Below the pieces are notes generated by a model. It saw nothing but the letters and a program-made list of their open reading frames with translations, searched no databases and was not told the origin of the DNA. From a virus, in IMG/VR virus record IMGVR_UViG_3300045988_094968, positions 1-38,111 of that record: 38,111 nucleotides of DNA. One strand, given 5' to 3'. The first letter of the stretch is position 1. Each line of letters begins with the position of its first letter. This document shows, one piece after another, positions 1 to 37,766 of this stretch. The position numbers were made by a program, and so were the translations under genes.

Positions 1-55
1 TGGAGCGAACTATGAACGAGAACCCCGACAAGAGGTTTGACGGCACGCTGCTTAA
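1..55. repeat. Terminal overlap copy 1 (identical to 38057-38111)
   Basis: The 55 nt TGGAGCGAACTATGAACGAGAACCCCGACAAGAGGTTTGACGGCACGCTGCTTAA occur at both window ends. They lie inside a coding frame. Confidence 0.95.
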
Positions 56-209
56 AGCACGAGGCGTTTATGCCAAGGACTTCCAGCGCTATTGCAACGA
101 ACTTTGCCTTTCTCCTCAGGCTCGCGCAAAAATTGCCAATATCGGAATGCAGCAGCAGGAGGATAAGAGCTTACTGCTTGAAATACTTGGCGGCGATGAC
201 GATGATTAG
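1..209 (+). CDS. terS: Terminase small subunit (P27-like), 3' portion; continues from 37804 across the circular junction
   Basis: The frame is continuous with the ORF opening at ATG 37804. 37804..38056 plus 1..209 gives 462 nt (153 aa). The order HNH, small ORF, terL and the size fit P27-type small terminases. Assignment is by synteny and recollection. Confidence 0.72.
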   Translation, partial: ERTMNENPDKRFDGTLLKARGVYAKDFQRYCNELCLSPQARAKIANIGMQQQEDKSLLLEILGGDDDD

Positions 210-1881
210 CGAGAGTAGAGCCTACAAATATGCGGTTCGATGTGCTGAGAACCAAGACCGCAAGGTTGGTATATATGTTCAGCGGCAATGTGCGCAATGG
301 CTTGAAATAGTCAATGATAAGAACCCGAAAGCCTATATATCGCACAGTCAGTGGAAGAAGATCACGAAGATACTAAAAATTATCGTCCACCCTGACCTCA
401 ATTGCTGTATGCATGACGGTCTTGAAGATTACGCTATGCTGTTCATATATGCAATATTCTGCACCAAAAATGCCAAGGACAGCTATAGGTACTATCAGAC
501 CGCGCTGTTGGAAATTGCCCGAAAGAACTTCAAGACGTTCACTTCCGCAGTGATTTTCATAATCGGATTGCTGAGTGAGCCAAGGTTCAGCCGCTTCTTT
601 TCAGTTGCTCCCGACCTGAAGTTATCGAGCGAGCTGAAAATGGCGATCCGAAAGATCATTAAGTCAAGCCCATATCTTGAAGATGAGTTCAAGATATTGC
701 GCAGCGAGATCAGGTGCAAGTTGACGGATTCTGAATATACACCGCTTGCATACTCGCAAGACAAAATGGACGGTAAGCTTGCAACTATGTTTCTCGCCGA
801 TGAGGTCGGAGCAATGGACAACTATCCGCTCGAAGCAATGCGCTCCTCGCAGATAACACTTAGAGAAAAGCTCGGTGTAGTTATTTCCACACAGTACCCG
901 AACGATTTCAACGCAATGCTTGATGAGATCGACAAATCGAAAAAAACAATTGACGGTATTCTTAACGAACGCCGTTTTTCTTTACTTTTTGAACCTGATG
1001 ACGAGTTCAAGCAGGGCGACAGTTGGATGACGGAAGATCTTGCAATCTTTCAGGCGAATCCCGTTGCCGTTAATAACGATTACATTTTAGACGATCTCAT
1101 CGAAAAGCGTCAGAATGCGATCCTTTACGAGAACGCACGAGAGAATTTCCTCTGTAAGCACCTTAACATACTCTACAAGGGGCTTGGCGTTGAGGGGTAT
1201 ATAGACATTAACAATGTCAGACTGTGCCGTACAAATGAAGATTTGGAGTTCTGGAGAGGGAAAAGAGTGTATCTTGGACTTGACCTCTCGCAGACCGATG
1301 ATAATACATCGTTGGCTATGGTGACAAAAGAGGGCGATACCGTATATGCAAAAGTCTGGGGATTCATTCCTGAGAATAAAATCGACATCAAAAGCCACAA
1401 GGAAGGCGTTGATTATGCAAAACTTATCCGTGAAAAGAATTGCTTTGCCTGCGGCGATGATGTCATTGATTACGGTTTTGTTGAAAGGTTCATACAATCA
1501 CTTTCGGAGTTGTACGGTGTTGAGATAGTTCAGTTAGGTTTCGACCGATACAATGCAATTTCCACGATCCAGAAGCTTGAAGGAAGTGAGCACCCTGTTG
1601 AATGTGTTGAAATAACACAGCACTCGCGTTTCCTGCACCGACCCACAAAACTTCTCCGCGAACTTATTCTGAGCCGAAAATTTTCATATGACTGTAATCT
1701 TATGTTGGAAATCAACTTTGAAAATGCTCGATGCACCAAAGACACCAATCTGAACCAGTATGTCAATAAAAAGAAGTCGGCAGGCAAGGTAGATATGGTC
1801 GTATCATTGATCAATGCAATGTATCTGCTTCAAATTGCGGAATTTGACAACAGCGGCGGATTTGTATGTCAGGTCATCTGA
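196..1881 (+). CDS. terL: Terminase large subunit (Terminase_1-like)
   Basis: Part of the 614-aa ORF. In-frame ATG 196 (or 202) overlaps the terS stop, and 37-195 lies inside terS. It has a Walker-A-like 'EIARKNFKT' and a nuclease-domain 'YLGLDLSQTDDNTSLAMV'. The portal gene follows directly. Confidence 0.9.
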   Translation: MTMISESRAYKYAVRCAENQDRKVGIYVQRQCAQWLEIVNDKNPKAYISHSQWKKITKILKIIVHPDLNCCMHDGLEDYAMLFIYAIFCTKNAKDSYRYYQTALLEIARKNFKTFTSAVIFIIGLLSEPRFSRFFSVAPDLKLSSELKMAIRKIIKSSPYLEDEFKILRSEIRCKLTDSEYTPLAYSQDKMDGKLATMFLADEVGAMDNYPLEAMRSSQITLREKLGVVISTQYPNDFNAMLDEIDKSKKTIDGILNERRFSLLFEPDDEFKQGDSWMTEDLAIFQANPVAVNNDYILDDLIEKRQNAILYENARENFLCKHLNILYKGLGVEGYIDINNVRLCRTNEDLEFWRGKRVYLGLDLSQTDDNTSLAMVTKEGDTVYAKVWGFIPENKIDIKSHKEGVDYAKLIREKNCFACGDDVIDYGFVERFIQSLSELYGVEIVQLGFDRYNAISTIQKLEGSEHPVECVEITQHSRFLHRPTKLLRELILSRKFSYDCNLMLEINFENARCTKDTNLNQYVNKKKSAGKVDMVVSLINAMYLLQIAEFDNSGGFVCQVI

Positions 1882-3617
1882 AAGGAGTGATAAATATAGG
1901 CATTTTTAAGCGAAAGAAGAAAATTGAAAAGCGTGCCGAATCTCCGAGTGTTCTGACGCTTGAGGGGCTTGTTGCATACGGAACGAAAATCACGAGGGAG
2001 CAGGCGCTTGAGATTCCTACTGTTGCTGCCTGTGTGGGCAAGCTTGCCGATACCGTTGCAAGGCTGCCGATACATCTTCACCAGAAAGTCGATGATAAAG
2101 TCGTTGAGGTCAAGGGAGATCCGCGATTGAAACAGCTCAACGGCGAAACAGGTGACGCTATGAACGCGGTTGAAATGTGGACAGCGGCGCTTTCGGACTA
2201 TTTTCTTGGGCGCGGAGCATGGATATACATAGAACCGCGGTTCGAGGGGCTGCATTATGTTGACAGCCGCAGCGTGGGGACCATCAGTAATGCCGACCCG
2301 ATTTTCAAGCAGTTCTGTGTGAATATCAACGGTCAGAATTATTATGACTGGCAGTTCATCAAACTGCTGCGCAAGACCCGAAACGGCTGGGACAACGTGC
2401 CGATACAGGAAGAATCGGCGACAATTTTCTCCGCGGCATACAATTCGATAAAACTTGAAAATCAGATGAATGTAAACGGCGGCTGCAAGCCCGGTTTTCT
2501 GAAATCAAGTCACACGCTGACTAAAGAAGCTGCCGATATGATACGCGAAAATTACAATTCGATGTACTCAAATGACGGCGGCAGCCAGAAAGGAAAAGTA
2601 GTCGTATTAAACGAGGGCATTGACTTCCAAGCAGTTACAAATACCGCGGTTGAGCTGCAAATGAACGAGAACAAAAAGGTCAATTCAATCGAGATCTGCA
2701 AGCTTTTCGGATTTCCGCACACGATCATAGACGGCGGTGCTTCGGAGGAAGATAAGAAACAGTTCATATCCGTTGTTGTATCTATTGTCAATCGGATAGA
2801 GACGGCTCTTGATACTGTCATGCTTTACGAAGATGAGAAAGAGAAAGGCTATTACTGGTCTTTCGACACGCGAGAGCTGACGCGAGGCAACATGAAAGAA
2901 CGCTATGAAGCGTATGCGATCGCACTGGAAAATCACTTCCTGCAAATTGATGAGGTACGCCGCGAGGAAGATTACGAACCTGTCGGATTCAATTTCGTAA
3001 CTATGGGGCTTGGCGATATTCTCCTCAATCCCGAGACAATGGAAGTGTTCACTCCGAATACCGGTCAGACAAGCAATCTGCTGACGGGCGAAAGCCGAGC
3101 CGAGGGCATCGAGCTGCGCTACAACCATAATCACGATTCCAAGGGGAGATTTGCAAGTGGTTCAGGTGGCGGAGGTTCTTTAAAACCTGTTGACAAATCA
3201 AATAAAAATTTGTCGAAACCATTGACACCAGAAGAAAAAAAGCGTATACTAAAAGAAAAGATAGACTCGGGCGAAATGAAAACAAATGTTGATGTAACGC
3301 AACAGCCTAAACATCAGTATTCAAAATCTTGGAAGAATCAAGTAAAGCAATCATTAATGCCTGGCAGTAAACAAAAACCGAGGTCGGTTCTTGCTAAAGG
3401 TGCTGTTCCTGAAGAGTTGGTGAAAAAGTATTCGCTAACAGGCAGAGTTGAGTTAAGTAGAGACGGTAGCCGAATTGATGAATTTGTTAACACTCCTGAT
3501 TTTATAGGACGTACTTATGACAGTGAATTAAAACGGTATGTCAAAACTAAAACTCTTCAAATTAGATACACTAAAAAAGGCATTCATGTATTCCCGACTA
3601 TTAAAAAGGAGGCGTAG
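1866..3617 (+). CDS. Portal protein (HK97-type, about 430 aa) fused to a roughly 146-aa basic C-terminal extension
   Basis: 583-aa ORF immediately after terL and upstream of the prohead protease. The body ends near 'RYNHNHDSKGRFASG', followed by a 'GSGGGGS' linker (about 3157-3179). A Lys-rich, visibly AT-rich tail follows. The start is uncertain: ATG 1866 overlaps terL, and RBS AAAGGAG at 1881-1887 would favour a downstream non-ATG start. Confidence 0.85.
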   Translation: MSGHLKGVINIGIFKRKKKIEKRAESPSVLTLEGLVAYGTKITREQALEIPTVAACVGKLADTVARLPIHLHQKVDDKVVEVKGDPRLKQLNGETGDAMNAVEMWTAALSDYFLGRGAWIYIEPRFEGLHYVDSRSVGTISNADPIFKQFCVNINGQNYYDWQFIKLLRKTRNGWDNVPIQEESATIFSAAYNSIKLENQMNVNGGCKPGFLKSSHTLTKEAADMIRENYNSMYSNDGGSQKGKVVVLNEGIDFQAVTNTAVELQMNENKKVNSIEICKLFGFPHTIIDGGASEEDKKQFISVVVSIVNRIETALDTVMLYEDEKEKGYYWSFDTRELTRGNMKERYEAYAIALENHFLQIDEVRREEDYEPVGFNFVTMGLGDILLNPETMEVFTPNTGQTSNLLTGESRAEGIELRYNHNHDSKGRFASGSGGGGSLKPVDKSNKNLSKPLTPEEKKRILKEKIDSGEMKTNVDVTQQPKHQYSKSWKNQVKQSLMPGSKQKPRSVLAKGAVPEELVKKYSLTGRVELSRDGSRIDEFVNTPDFIGRTYDSELKRYVKTKTLQIRYTKKGIHVFPTIKKEA

Positions 3618-3619
3618 CA

Positions 3620-3829
3620 ATGTTAGATTACAAAGAATGGAACGAAACTGTTCCTAAATTGTTAGGTAAAAAAATTCGTATAACCTGCACAGATGATGAA
3701 GTCTATAACACCACCTGTGATTATATCTCAGAAGCAGAAGATGACGAAGGATATAATCTGCCTGTCATTGTAACGCCTTTTTTTGAATTTGACAGAACTG
3801 ATGTTAAAAAAATTGAATTTTTAGATTAA
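3620..3829 (+). CDS. Small acidic protein (69 aa), candidate partner/immunity protein of the portal C-terminal domain
   Basis: The ATG lies 2 nt after the portal stop, and RBS AAAGGAGG sits in the portal 3' end. It shares the AT-rich composition of the portal tail. An acidic patch 'SEAEDDEG' is present, and a hairpin terminator follows. Confidence 0.5.
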   Translation: MLDYKEWNETVPKLLGKKIRITCTDDEVYNTTCDYISEAEDDEGYNLPVIVTPFFEFDRTDVKKIEFLD

Positions 3830-3857
3830 ACCGCCCAGCAATGAGCGGTTTTCTTAT
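3828..3857 (+). terminator. Hairpin plus T-tract after the 69-aa ORF
   Basis: AAACCGC-(10 nt)-GCGGTTT followed by TCTT. The stem is weak to moderate (7 bp). Confidence 0.4.
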
Positions 3858-3881
3858 ACCCATTTGAAGGAGGTGAGGAGA

Positions 3882-4127
3882 ATGGACGAGAAAGCACTGA
3901 AAATAGTCAGAGATTATATATTTGCACATCTCGACAAGACGGATACTGTTCCGCCATTTGATGTCTATATGGTCTGGAAGTGCAAAGCCTTGCAGAACTG
4001 GAAGTATCTTATCTCCAGTACGCTGTGTGACGGTATGTACTATGAGATGACATACAACGGCGACAAGAAGGAATGGTATCTCGACGCTTACAAGAAGTTC
4101 GAGAACAAAGTTATCACGGAGGAATAA
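3882..4127 (+). CDS. Small conserved phage protein (81 aa; resembles the DUF6275-type 'VWxCKxLQNxK...DGMYYExTYNGDK' family)
   Basis: ATG 3882 is preceded by GGAGGTGAGG. The track start at 3864 is a TTG upstream of that RBS. The motif 'VWKCKALQNWKYLISSTLCDGMYYEMTYNGDKKEWYLDAYKK' is recalled from Firmicute prophages. Confidence 0.6.
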   Translation: MDEKALKIVRDYIFAHLDKTDTVPPFDVYMVWKCKALQNWKYLISSTLCDGMYYEMTYNGDKKEWYLDAYKKFENKVITEE

Positions 4128-4130
4128 AAA

Positions 4131-4364
4131 ATGGACGACTGGAAAGGCAGGCTGAAAGCTGAGTACTCTCAGACAAAGGAACGATACGAAAAGCTGAAGG
4201 CTTATAATAACAAGCAGGAAGTTGAAGCCTACTTACTCAAAGACATTGCAGAAGAACCGGAAGATATGTACAGCAGAGTGCTGCTGAAAAAACAGCAGGC
4301 TGCTATGGGCGAGTACCTTCACATACTGGAGCTCCGTGCAGAGCTGGCTCACATCGAACTTTAA
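4131..4364 (+). CDS. Small helical protein (77 aa)
   Basis: The ATG lies 3 nt after the preceding stop. The pattern 'WKGRLKAEYSQTKERYEKL...QQAAMGEYLHILELRAEL' resembles a recurrent small phage helical family. Function is unknown. Confidence 0.55.
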   Translation: MDDWKGRLKAEYSQTKERYEKLKAYNNKQEVEAYLLKDIAEEPEDMYSRVLLKKQQAAMGEYLHILELRAELAHIEL

Positions 4365-4447
4365 TACCGCTTACAAGCATTTGCCAAGGACACAAATGTC
4401 CCTCGCAAGTGCTATTTTTATACCCCAAATCAGAAAGGACTGATAAA

Positions 4448-5020
4448 ATGATAAAAATCGAAGAACGCGCAGACGGTGTGCACATCAGCGGATATGTCAA
4501 CACAACCGGCAAGCCGTCACGTCCGATAATCACGCCGCGCGGCAAGGTCATCGAGGTAATTGAAGAAAGAGCGTTTGAGCAGGCGCTCAGATCCAACGGC
4601 GAGGTTACTATGAGCGTAGACCACGACCAGTCGCATATCTATGCTTCTACGCGCGACAATACGCTGTCGGTCTACGAGGACGCTATCGGACTTCATGCAG
4701 ACGTACTCGTGCGCGACAAAGACCTCATTGACATTGCCAAAAAGGGCAAGATAAGAGGCTGGAGTTTCGGTATGTACAACGTTGTGGACGACATGGAACA
4801 GCGTGCCGATGATATACCGATACGGCACATAAAATCGCTTGAACTCGACCATATCACGCTCGTTGTTCACAAGCAGCCGTGCTATGCTGCAACATCTGTT
4901 GAAGTGAGAGCAGACAGCGATATGGTTATGGAAACAAGAACGTTTGAGGACGAATCACAGGTGACTATTCCGAAGCCTGATTATTCAGACTTTGAAAAAC
5001 GCATTGCAGAATTAGGATAA
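4448..5020 (+). CDS. Prohead protease (HK97 / S78-like)
   Basis: In-frame ATG 4448 follows GAAAGGA. The product starts 'MIKIEERADGVHISGYVN' and contains 'SVDHD' and 'GWSFGM'. The gene lies directly upstream of the major capsid gene. Confidence 0.85.
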   Translation: MIKIEERADGVHISGYVNTTGKPSRPIITPRGKVIEVIEERAFEQALRSNGEVTMSVDHDQSHIYASTRDNTLSVYEDAIGLHADVLVRDKDLIDIAKKGKIRGWSFGMYNVVDDMEQRADDIPIRHIKSLELDHITLVVHKQPCYAATSVEVRADSDMVMETRTFEDESQVTIPKPDYSDFEKRIAELG

Positions 5021-17254: not shown

Positions 17255-17421
17255 GACCATTAAGAGATAACGCATGAAAGTATGTGGGAAAAGATAATAA
17301 ATTAAAATTTACGTTACCTCTATATTCTATTATACCTATAACTCGCGGTAAGTCAAGACCGCACCGAAAAATAATTGTCGAATTTTGGCGAATAAGTAGT
17401 AACAAGAAGATACAATGCCTA

Positions 17422-20633: not shown

Positions 20634-21371
20634 TTACTGCGGCAGTTCTGCCGTGCCTATTACGCGACCGACACAAATGATTTCTCCGTCCTCGGGGTAT
20701 ATATCAGGGTATTCATCGTTGTGTGAAATCAAACGATCATTGCCTTTTTCTTTTATATATCCCTTATTGTTTTGGATAAACAATCCAATTTTTCCAACAG
20801 GGACATCTGTATCAGATACCACATATACAATATCGCCGTTCTGGTATGTTGGTTCCATACTGCGACCGTCAATCTCGACGGCGAAATCCGCCTTTTGTGC
20901 TTCGGGCGTGTCAACGACCTCTAAATCTTCCCAATTATCGGCGTCCTCTAAGTCGTATCCGCAACCTGCCGATACCTTGTGTACGCTGAAACGCTTGAAA
21001 ACAATGATTTTCGGCTCACCTGCCATACCTCGCTTGGCAGCTTCGCCCAACTGTATCATTGTGTCCATAATGATCTGTCGTATATTTTCGGGCAGCTTGC
21101 AGTACAGATCTAAGGCTTCTTTCTCGCCGATAGCCAGATTCAACATGGCTATCGGATTTTTTTCGGATTCACGTCCGAGCAGATAGTCAACAGTTACGTT
21201 AAAATGATTTGCAAGTACTATTAAACCGTCTGCATTAGGTTCAGATGTACCATTTTCATATCGCTGATACGCCTGCTGTGTTACTCCGACTATTTTGGCG
21301 ATTTCAGATTGGCGTTCATTTTTGGATTCGCGTAACTTTTTTAATATAGCGCCACGTTCTGATCTATCCAT
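20634..21371 (-). CDS. CI/LexA-like repressor (XRE HTH plus S24 peptidase)
   Basis: ATG 21371 lies 8 nt after AAAGGAG. The HTH is 'QSEIAKIVGVTQQAYQRYENG'. A possible Ala-Gly cleavage site is 'VSAGCGY'. The catalytic 'DGRSMEP' serine and a downstream lysine are present. Confidence 0.9.
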   Translation of the reverse strand: MDRSERGAILKKLRESKNERQSEIAKIVGVTQQAYQRYENGTSEPNADGLIVLANHFNVTVDYLLGRESEKNPIAMLNLAIGEKEALDLYCKLPENIRQIIMDTMIQLGEAAKRGMAGEPKIIVFKRFSVHKVSAGCGYDLEDADNWEDLEVVDTPEAQKADFAVEIDGRSMEPTYQNGDIVYVVSDTDVPVGKIGLFIQNNKGYIKEKGNDRLISHNDEYPDIYPEDGEIICVGRVIGTAELPQ

Positions 21372-21393
21372 AAAATCATCTCCTTTCAATAAG

Positions 21394-37268: not shown

Positions 37269-37299
37269 AACCGCTCTCCTATAGGAGAGTGGTTTTCTT
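37269..37299 (+). terminator. Hairpin terminator closing the cassette
   Basis: AACCGCTCTCC-TATA-GGAGAGTGGTT (11 bp with one G.U) followed by TTCTT. Confidence 0.55.
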
Positions 37300-37322
37300 A
37301 TTACAGAAAGTGCGGTGATAGT

Positions 37323-37766
37323 TTGAAAAAAGCCTGTCGATACTGCGGAAAATATCACGACCGTGGTGAGACGTGCCCGAAAAAGCCTAAGTATTTCTGT
37401 GACGCTTCAAGCGCGGAGTACAAATTCAGGAGTAGCTTTAAGTGGAGAGTAAAGCGCGAGGAGATAAAGAAACGGGATAATTACCAGTGCCTTGCCTGTC
37501 GTGCAAATCTTTCCGGAACGATTCGCAGGTTCAACCCGTATGAATTATCTGTGCATCACATCACACCACTGCGGGAAGACATTTCAATGGGACTTAATGA
37601 CGGTAATTTAATTACTCTGTGCAGATATCACCACGAGCAGGCAGAAAGAGGAAAAATTCCGCGAAAAATTCTTTTTGATCTTGTTAAAAATTTACAGTGT
37701 ATCCCCCCCTACCCCTTAGATGTTGAATTTTCAAAACGCGCCGACACCAAGGAATGGGGTCTGTAA
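37323..37766 (+). CDS. HNH endonuclease (packaging-associated)
   Basis: TTG start. 'CRYCGK...YQCLAC...SVHHITPL...NLITLCRYHHEQAE'. It lies directly upstream of terS, as in HK97-like cos phages. Confidence 0.88.
   Translation: MKKACRYCGKYHDRGETCPKKPKYFCDASSAEYKFRSSFKWRVKREEIKKRDNYQCLACRANLSGTIRRFNPYELSVHHITPLREDISMGLNDGNLITLCRYHHEQAERGKIPRKILFDLVKNLQCIPPYPLDVEFSKRADTKEWGL

Follow-up and report, generated by a model that had tools for sequence, protein, structure and literature searches.

A putative portal-borne polymorphic toxin/immunity cassette in a temperate HK97-like phage

Introduction

To our knowledge, MuF fusions are the only form in which polymorphic toxins of phage heads have been described. 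These MuF polymorphic toxins belong to temperate phages (Jamet et al. 2017, PMC5576092; Zhang et al. 2012, PMC3482391), with phiC2 gp04, phiOH2 gp26 and Javan210_0029 as examples, and the characterised MuF toxins include Apk2 and Bxa (PMC10083569, PMC11699363). Here we describe a locus in a 38,111-nucleotide stretch of viral DNA (IMG/VR record IMGVR_UViG_3300045988_094968, positions 1–38,111; hereafter the window, meaning the whole stretch), in which the portal gene of an HK97-like phage continues in frame into a predicted RNase domain of the Ntox50 family and is followed by a gene for a small acidic protein. Judged from sequence, the locus is probably a portal-borne polymorphic toxin/immunity cassette built in the order junction, linker, toxin, small open reading frame (ORF) and 3' boundary.

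Several further systems bear on this arrangement. Contact-dependent inhibition (CDI; CdiA-CT/CdiI) and Rhs loci possess the pre-toxin motifs VENN and DPxGL together with orphan cassettes. In phage T4, Alt and the internal proteins carry capsid-targeting sequences that are removed by the prohead protease gp21. The Ntox50 family itself was defined as a predicted BECR-fold RNase of polymorphic toxins, with an association to MuF and no immunity protein given (PMC3482391). YxiD-CT of Bacillus subtilis 6633 is a metal-dependent tRNase of this family that requires K446, H447, H521, K524 and H528, the H521A substitution eliminating its activity, and YxxD is its validated immunity protein, an Sm-like protein with AF-Sm1, YaeO (6JIE), Hfq and Lsm8 as structural neighbours (PMC12700104). 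Effector fusions to portals are not new as such: the passages of Iyer et al. considered here (PMC5512222, PMC9503650) record PBECR RNase, 2H, Nudix, InPase and ART domains fused to portal domains, with predicted packaging and injection. T4 Alt is also mentioned there (PMC5512222).

The portal-toxin fusion

The portal gene is a single continuous ORF on the + strand (1866–3617) that encodes 583 amino acids (aa). Its conserved carrier part is the HK97-type portal body (aa 1–415; 1866–3110), in which Phage_portal (PF04860) covers aa 51–369 (4e-43, 148 bits vs 39.1, profile positions 1–321 of 321) and the NCBIfam equivalog portal_HK97 (TIGR01537) scores 132.5 bits against a cutoff of 112.05. Portals at 38–55% identity end at approximately this point, at 412–445 aa, have no extension and are directly followed by the protease gene. 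The portal DNA up to position 3175 is 95–98% identical by blastn to at least 15 related contigs. The body is followed by the junction peptide ELR-YNHNHDSKGRF (3111–3152, +), with RYNHNHDSKGRF at 3117–3152 and Y419 encoded at 3120–3122, and then by a Gly/Ser linker, ASGSGGGGS (3153–3179, +), that can be read directly from the sequence.

The remaining C-terminal domain of approximately 145 aa is basic (pI 10.0, 17% Lys) and ends in LQIRYTKKGIHVFPTIKKEA. The GC content over 3176–3860 is 0.35, compared to 0.48 in the portal body and 0.49 in the protease and capsid genes, and 5% of same-size windows in the 38-kb sequence are lower. An earlier note on this DNA had drawn attention to the unusual length of the portal, to a GSGGGGS linker leading into a Lys-rich domain, to an AT-rich segment and to an acidic 69-aa ORF 2 nt past the stop codon; all of these hold, with the AT-richness being real and not extreme.

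Within the C-terminal domain, Ntox50 (PF15542) spans aa 480–577 (3303–3596, +) with 2.5e-12 and 47.8 bits on the fusion (52.4 bits when the tail is taken alone; gathering score 22.2), over profile positions 5–92 of 92. A Foldseek search with the AlphaFold model of the domain gives YxiD-CT as the best match (9v8i_B; E 9e-5, probability 1.0, TM-score by target 0.66) and MafB2-CT as the second (8hhj_B). The same two proteins are found in the protein data bank (PDB) by a profile of seven phage Ntox50 tails, at 3.4e-16 for YxiD-CT and 7e-7 for MafB2-CT; single-sequence PDB searches with the toxin tail and with the 69-aa ORF returned noise only. Equivalents of YxiD K446-H447, K524 and H528 are kept in the sequences PKHQY (PKH at aa 482–484) and YTKKGIHVFP, and the C-terminal HxVP motif reads HVFP, or H-x-F-P, in the window. 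By its sequence, the portal tail is an Ntox50 BECR-fold domain and a predicted RNase toxin, which agrees with the BECR-type RNase that the earlier note had suspected from a C-terminal His.

The 69-aa protein

The gene for the 69-aa protein (3620–3829, +) starts at ATG 3620, separated by a 2-nt gap from the portal stop codon TAG (3615–3617). Its Shine-Dalgarno sequence AAGGAGG (3606–3612, +) is located inside the end of the portal ORF, 7 nt before the start codon. The protein is acidic (pI 4.26; 17 D+E vs 8 K+R), and its model (pLDDT 87) consists of an N-terminal helix and a bent five-stranded sheet. Structure searches match this model to Sm, LSm, Hfq, Gemin6/7 and YaeO with a probability of approximately 0.99 but E values of 0.01–0.1. 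A profile of the family gives weak LSm8/Hfq-like matches, some of its members match Pfam LSM and SM-ATX, and a seven-member profile retrieves 551 proteins, many of them named "LSM domain protein". A word-indexed homologue search with the single sequence found only a 99% twin, a tblastn search against phages gave no match, and no NCBIfam family was assigned to this ORF.

Homologues of the 69-aa family directly follow Ntox50 in 12 of the 15 contexts examined. Members are found 0–15 nt after Ntox50 on the portals of two related phages (L001, L036), in leader cassettes (L001, L002) and behind several MuF proteins, with the order MuF-Ntox50 and Sm-like family occurring in phiOH2, Javan210, phiC2, L061, L063, L064 and L068. 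Seven family members were sampled for their context, and four of them are located directly after a MuF-Ntox50 gene. Across 12 pairs, the distances between toxins correlate with the distances between small ORFs (Mantel r 0.71, p 2e-4), as would be expected from a cognate immunity gene. From the family context, the model fold and the analogy with YxxD, we infer that the 69-aa protein is the cognate Ntox50 immunity protein. The downstream immunity gene proposed in the earlier note thus gains a family that recurs after Ntox50 on portals, MuF proteins and leader cassettes, with the fold class of YxxD.

One relative of the Sm-like proteins, P0109 (listed in 474 collection blocks), is found alone in Streptococcus pyogenes genomes (L057 and L058, 3501–3698) with no Ntox50 nearby. 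It is located in an element resembling a phage-inducible chromosomal island (PICI), beside D5-type primase and DUF1492 genes, and may represent the orphan immunity gene of a phage satellite.

Polymorphism of the portal C-terminus

Sibling phages are 95–98% identical to the window over 1–3175 and again from 4409–4415 onwards by blastn. Between these points, from the junction to the protease gene (3176–4412), is a hypervariable replacement region in which the siblings cannot be aligned, with blastn breakpoints at 3175 in L003, L004, L019, L024, L025, L028, L038 and L039. Nine unrelated C-termini are found on portals of at least 95% DNA identity, each with its own small ORF. The Ntox50 type of the window with its 69-aa ORF is also present in L054, and a second Ntox50 type is paired with a 61-aa ORF (L036). 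An ADP-ribosyltransferase (ADPrib_exo_Tox, 1e-31) has its own small ORF (L003, L019, L049), DUF4258 is followed by a 79-aa ORF (L007), and a helical tail with no family assigned is followed by an 87-aa ORF (L004 and others). Two further tails without an assigned family are 217 aa in length with their own small ORF (L025) and 153 aa with a Cys-rich ORF (L028). The last two types are a small domain (L040, L042) and a second small domain (L043), both followed by an acidic ORF. More distant portals, at approximately 67% DNA identity, carry EndoU_bacteria (1e-15, L037) or an NNHWxNGRTH-type domain with a CPCC small ORF (L002), and Gln_amidase (2e-13) is found on a leader cassette of a more distant carrier.

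Throughout, the small ORF tracks the toxin type and not the portal. The locus shows two features of polymorphic toxin systems (Zhang et al. 2012), namely a conserved carrier with unrelated C-terminal toxins and a small downstream gene that varies with the toxin, the toxin and immunity functions being predicted ones. This pattern extends beyond the siblings: 61 of the 150 closest portal cluster representatives (41%) are at least 500 aa long. Pfam analysis of these 61 tails identifies DUF4258 (5), Ntox50 (3), NUDIX, ART, EndoU, Gln_amidase and PBECR1, and approximately 45 tails have no Pfam hit. The earlier note had considered an injected effector on a portal unusual; judged by these counts and by the fusions already noted in the passages of Iyer et al. 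(PMC5512222, PMC9503650), portal-fused effectors are not very rare. It had also called for a comparison of related portals, in which an invariant decoration would have counted against a toxin; close homologues instead carry alternative C-termini or none.

The junction peptide and its anchors

A degenerate-DNA scan for the junction retrieved 8 viral and 31 metagenome stretches, the junction-bearing stretches coming from human-gut, rumen and other animal metagenomes. In the 35 unique junction DNA contexts, third codon positions vary freely, and because of this synonymous variation a purely DNA-level recombination site was rejected. The variation suggests selection at the level of the peptide, a suggestion qualified by the scan pattern having fixed the amino acids beforehand. 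The residue preceding the junction Tyr is Arg or Lys in 34 of the 35 contexts and Gly in the exception (L051). When generalised to N-[PH]-[NY]-H-D-x(1-4)-G-[RKQ]-F, the junction occurs in 23 of the 61 portal representatives that have an extension and in none of 75 short ones, which turns the HD-x-x-GRF motif of the earlier note into a recurrent feature of extended portals. A tblastn search of the 35-aa junction peptide against phages gave no match. Many long portals have a second junction type, ...IQDPxTG(R/K/Q)MxGSxPxGG or IKGxHGYFxGS (portal cluster representatives P0125–P0274).

The same junction links cargo to portals, to the S78 prohead protease and to leader peptides of 26–102 aa. It is a candidate site for processing or targeting and the putative left boundary of recombination. 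The C-terminus of the protease is fused to it in L023 (113–1132, -) and L035 (Pfam 5.7e-33). The window has a single junction and no additional stand-alone cassette; siblings have such cassettes in the terS/terL gap and after the protease gene.

The cassettes at terL are approximately 1 kb in length and consist of a leader, junction, toxin, small ORF and terminator inserted exactly at the terL start (L014, 3880–4860; also L029, L040 and L047), corresponding to approximately 203–218 of the window, where the site is empty. The insertion reuses the old start codon overlapping the end of terS and gives terL a new ribosome binding site and ATG. Cassettes in the terS/terL gap are probably expressed and not silent, because they have their own start codon and leader. 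In two contigs (L032, L055) a degenerate junction, ...LELRYNPYHDPGNGR...G*, closes the protease ORF, and NEELRYNHNHD... and cargo come next in the same frame, with no start codon; the arrangement may reflect a stacked or displaced cassette or stop-codon readthrough. Two more distant phages have a terL ORF of only 503 aa that begins with MHPDL (L001, 1892–3403; L002, 1726–3237). A 153-aa Cys-rich ORF (L001, 1218–1679) lies between the leader cassette and terL, with a 65-aa ORF in that place in L002, and the N-terminal 100 aa or so of the window TerL appear to have been displaced or lost in both.

Promoter, 3' boundary and passenger genes

The linker-coding DNA contains a sigma-70/sigma-A-like promoter, TTGACA-17-TATACT (3222–3250, +), directed towards the toxin domain and the 69-aa gene. 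It matches 11 of 12 positions of TTGACA-(16–18)-TATAAT, and its activity is predicted from sequence. The 38-kb window contains six sites of at least 11/12, compared to 0.83 ± 0.73 in shuffles. The other five are located at 17356 (-), 21423 (-), 22172 (-), 23923 (-) and 36365 (+), three of them in the intergenic stretch around the S24/HTH repressor (20634–21389), where a cluster of promoters is as expected for a lysogeny switch region.

Sites of at least 10/12 against TTGACA-16/18-TATAAT are carried by 29 of 32 distinct cassettes, mostly 17–98 nt past the junction and many of them perfect 12/12 matches. gTTGACAaatcaggagaatcaggTATAATc (TTGACA-16-TATAAT) encodes the widespread linker peptide VDKSGESGII, and other cassettes translate the -35 hexamer in a different frame (L-T), so the constraint acts on the DNA. 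Peptides similar to VDKSGxSGII recur at 35–45% portal identity, and the variants GIME and DYNN also back-translate to TATAAT, an observation made at the peptide level only.

A hairpin with a U-tract, resembling an intrinsic terminator, and the conserved 3' boundary GGTTTTCTTATACC are located at 3823–3860 (+). The hairpin arms AAACCGCCCA/TGAGCGGTTT lie at 3828–3851 and are followed by TTTTCTTAT / UUUUCUUAU. The hairpin folds with a dG of -11.2 kcal/mol (z = -3.8), and 1 of 200 shuffles is as stable; a consensus terminator scan did not call it. The hairpin described in the earlier note is present, as a putative terminator. Most cassettes end in an AAACCGnnn...nnnCGGTTT hairpin followed by TTTTCTTATACC, with compensatory changes where stems differ. 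The exact 14-mer GGTTTTCTTATACC occurs once in the window, and a second, degenerate boundary copy, GCTATTTTTATACCCC (4411–4426, +), is located where backbone homology resumes.

The two T-rich TATACC boundary copies flank two further ORFs of the variable region. The first encodes a DUF6275 protein (3882–4127, +; PF19791, 2e-28) and the second a crAss001_48-like protein (4131–4364, +; PF21825, 3e-14). The DUF6275 ORF is shared with L007 and L021, which have a different toxin, and is absent from L054, which has the same toxin. On this distribution, both ORFs seem to act as separate passengers, independent of toxin type.

Genome context

The head module of the window is ordered terS (12–209), terL (approximately 197–1881), portal, three small ORFs, S78 prohead protease and major capsid protein. 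The protease gene (4448–5020, +; PF04586, 1.2e-26) probably starts at ATG 4448 (MIKIEERADG), judged by comparison with L032 and L001. The remainder of the window encodes a tape-measure-size ORF, an M15 endolysin, a serine recombinase, the S24/HTH repressor, a primase-polymerase and an HNH endonuclease. From its gene content, the window is a complete temperate siphophage of the HK97-like type. The host is probably a gut Ruminococcus: related metagenome-assembled genomes are labelled Ruminococcus, and Ca. Ruminococcus hominiciens has 95–97% DNA identity to positions 1–963.

An assembly chimera was rejected, given that the independent contig L054 has the same portal-toxin-69-aa layout at 98% identity. 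A blastn search of 1866–3900 against GenBank phages gave no match, and an Rfam search of 3000–4600 found nothing. The HNH endonuclease gene (37323–37766) is directly upstream of terS across the window ends, and GGTTTTCTTATTAC at 37291–37304, just before this gene, resembles the cassette 3' boundary.

Comparison with described systems

In this fusion, as in MuF toxins, a variable toxin forms the C-terminus of a structural protein of the head interior, and a small ORF, here for a putative immunity protein, comes next. MuF proteins also carry Ntox50 with the same Sm-like small-ORF family, both systems belong to temperate phages of Firmicutes, and delivery is hypothetical in both. The carrier differs, being an HK97-type portal here: Pfam finds only Phage_portal and Ntox50 in the fusion, and the interval from terL to the capsid gene leaves no space for a MuF gene. 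By this analogy, the fusion would work like a MuF toxin without belonging to the family, since no MuF domain (PF04233 or PF06152) was found by Pfam. The phiC2 example of Zhang et al. (gi 134287339) was considered as a portal-Ntox50 fusion and rejected, as it is a MuF-Ntox50 protein. On inspection, the MuF-Ntox50 fusion of phiOH2 is without a YNHNHD-type junction, and the fixed junction, linker-codon promoter, conserved terminator and 3' boundary, and terS/terL cassettes set the window and its siblings apart from MuF toxins as described in the literature searched.

The toxin domain belongs to the same Ntox50 family and BECR fold as those of YxiD-YxxD (PDB 9v8i) and MafB2-CT/MafI2 of Neisseria meningitidis (PDB 8hhj). 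The K-H dyad and the Lys524 and His528 equivalents of YxiD are kept, and the model of the 69-aa protein resembles YxxD as a small Sm-like protein. Delivery in those systems is by LXG/type VII secretion or Maf, and a phage portal takes this place here. The 69-aa family has no detectable sequence similarity to YxxD, and the fold of MafI2 is different (PMC12700104).

CDI and Rhs loci resemble the locus in that a short peptide motif marks the switch from carrier to toxin, the immunity gene comes next and extra motif-bearing cassettes occur elsewhere, in this case in the siblings. They differ in that the carrier here is a virion protein and that the terS/terL cassettes have their own start codon and leader. 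The likeness to T4 Alt is in concept only, comprising targeted cargo, release by a head protease and injection; there is no sequence relationship, and cleavage of the junction is hypothetical here. The passages of Iyer et al. considered here treat portal fusions as anti-host effectors and make no mention of immunity genes, of cassettes that differ between near-identical phages, of a junction motif or of an embedded promoter and terminator (PMC5512222, PMC9503650). In the literature searched, where absence is not proof, there was no portal-borne toxin/immunity polymorphism between near-identical phages, no junction peptide, linker-codon promoter or conserved 3' boundary, and no Sm-like immunity family for phage Ntox50.

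Proposed function and alternative explanations

In HK97-type portals, the C-terminal crown faces inward. During late lytic growth the fusion would be made and assembled as a portal dodecamer, placing up to 12 toxin domains in the capsid interior on flexible linkers. The 69-aa protein would bind the basic active-site face, as YxxD does on YxiD, and keep the RNase inert in the producing cell. In the prophage, the embedded promoter and terminator would allow the immunity gene to be transcribed alone, so that lysogens are immune to the toxin of sibling virions. The junction would then be cut after the Arg or Lys that precedes the Tyr, probably by the S78 prohead protease, and the toxin thus released would be ejected along with the DNA and cleave tRNA or other RNA in a recipient without the immunity gene. 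These delivery steps, cleavage at the junction and injection, are proposed mainly because the junction is reused on three head-interior anchors, and we hold them tentatively, as somewhat more doubtful than not. The junction and 3' boundary would also serve as homology arms for cassette swaps among three sites, namely the 3' ends of the portal and protease genes and the terS/terL gap.

A broader proposal, which we regard as speculative, is that of a modular cargo-loading system in HK97-like phages of gut Firmicutes. The junction [R/K]-YN[HP][NY]HDxxG[RK]F with a Gly linker would be placed on any head-interior anchor (portal, prohead protease or leader peptide), and its cleavage by the head protease would allow interchangeable toxins to be packaged and injected. 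Every cargo would form a cassette whose own linker-codon promoter and terminator keep lysogens immune, and the temperate virions would be strain-specific toxin-delivery vehicles in the gut.

Several observations weigh against reading the locus as a toxin/immunity cassette of this kind. The equivalent of YxiD His521, the third catalytic His and the second His in the signature of Zhang et al., is Arg in the window (QIRY). At this position Lys is present in the L001 and L002 leader cassettes and the L068 MuF protein, and His in phiC2, phiOH2 and the L001 portal. Because H521A abolishes YxiD activity, this sub-clade may have an altered chemistry or a weaker activity; it still keeps the immunity gene. 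The toxin model is of medium confidence (mean pLDDT 69.8, core 80–88) and was built from an alignment of 3 sequences. With the profile of the 69-aa family, YxxD (9v8i chain A) is not matched at E ≤ 10, which leaves only the fold to connect the family with a validated immunity protein. The other three of the seven sampled family members stand alone, without an adjacent Ntox50, and the Mantel correlation could reflect co-inheritance instead of physical co-evolution. The promoter would transcribe the toxin-coding part as well, the terminator is modest and lies within the late operon, and a toxin still covalently attached to the portal would not be injected.

The strongest competing explanation, unlikely in our judgement, is an injected host-takeover or anti-defence effector that cuts host tRNAs, mRNAs or defence RNAs, with the 69-aa protein only quieting it during late synthesis. 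This is how Iyer et al., in the passages considered here, interpret PBECR, 2H, Nudix and ART domains fused to portal and MuF domains (PMC5512222, PMC9503650), NUDIX and PBECR1 tails are found among the related long portals, and diversity at one site would be equally expected from an arms race with host defences. The domains found here are nevertheless those of classical polymorphic toxins (Ntox50, EndoU_bacteria, Gln_amidase, ADPrib_exo_Tox, DUF4258), and a small ORF comes after every one of them; an indiscriminate tRNase would hurt the translation of the infecting phage itself; and a promoter able to express the small ORF apart from the late genes is hard to explain if protection is limited to assembly. 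That promoter, with the cassette and terminator behind it, has a moron-like layout, which would also suit a module that acts inside the lysogen and is not delivered, the promoter driving a free toxin fragment and its antidote as a toxin–antitoxin, addiction, abortive infection or superinfection exclusion system overlapping the portal gene. An in-frame ATG at 3276 (Met471) would give a 113-aa product with the entire Ntox50 domain, BECR RNases also occur in toxin–antitoxin systems (PMC3482391), and members of the Sm-like family stand alone in chromosomes and in the PICI-like element. Met471, however, is without a good Shine-Dalgarno sequence, and an early in-frame Met past the promoter is not general, with none nearby in the L003 ART cassette. 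The frame is also always fused to a head-interior protein or a leader through a junction conserved as a peptide, which would be pointless for a purely intracellular module, and we consider this explanation quite improbable.

Structural decoration or an assembly aid of the portal, with the small ORF encoding an unrelated head-assembly chaperone, would agree with the position of the region within the head-morphogenesis module and with the long C-terminal barrels of some portals, such as that of P22. It is contradicted by the nine unrelated C-termini on portals of 95–98% DNA identity, with none on more distant portals, by an identifiable toxin family with conserved catalytic residues and by a small ORF that follows the toxin type; it was rejected on the C-terminal polymorphism and has hardly any probability left. 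A portal-borne toxin/immunity cassette thus remains the preferred reading of the locus.

Implications

The principle of the polymorphic toxin would extend to the portal, and with it to HK97-type phages without MuF, among whose closest portal representatives extra C-terminal domains are frequent and mostly unannotated. The "LSM domain proteins" that make up the 551 relatives of the 69-aa protein are proposed as immunity proteins for phage Ntox50, for which Zhang et al. listed none. The locus also offers testable handles: a junction peptide that may be a cleavage site, a promoter within coding sequence from which lysogens should express the immunity gene, and a conserved 3' boundary for cassette exchange. 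If injection takes place, near-identical gut phages would differ mainly in their weapon, which would bear on strain competition and lysogeny dynamics in the microbiome.

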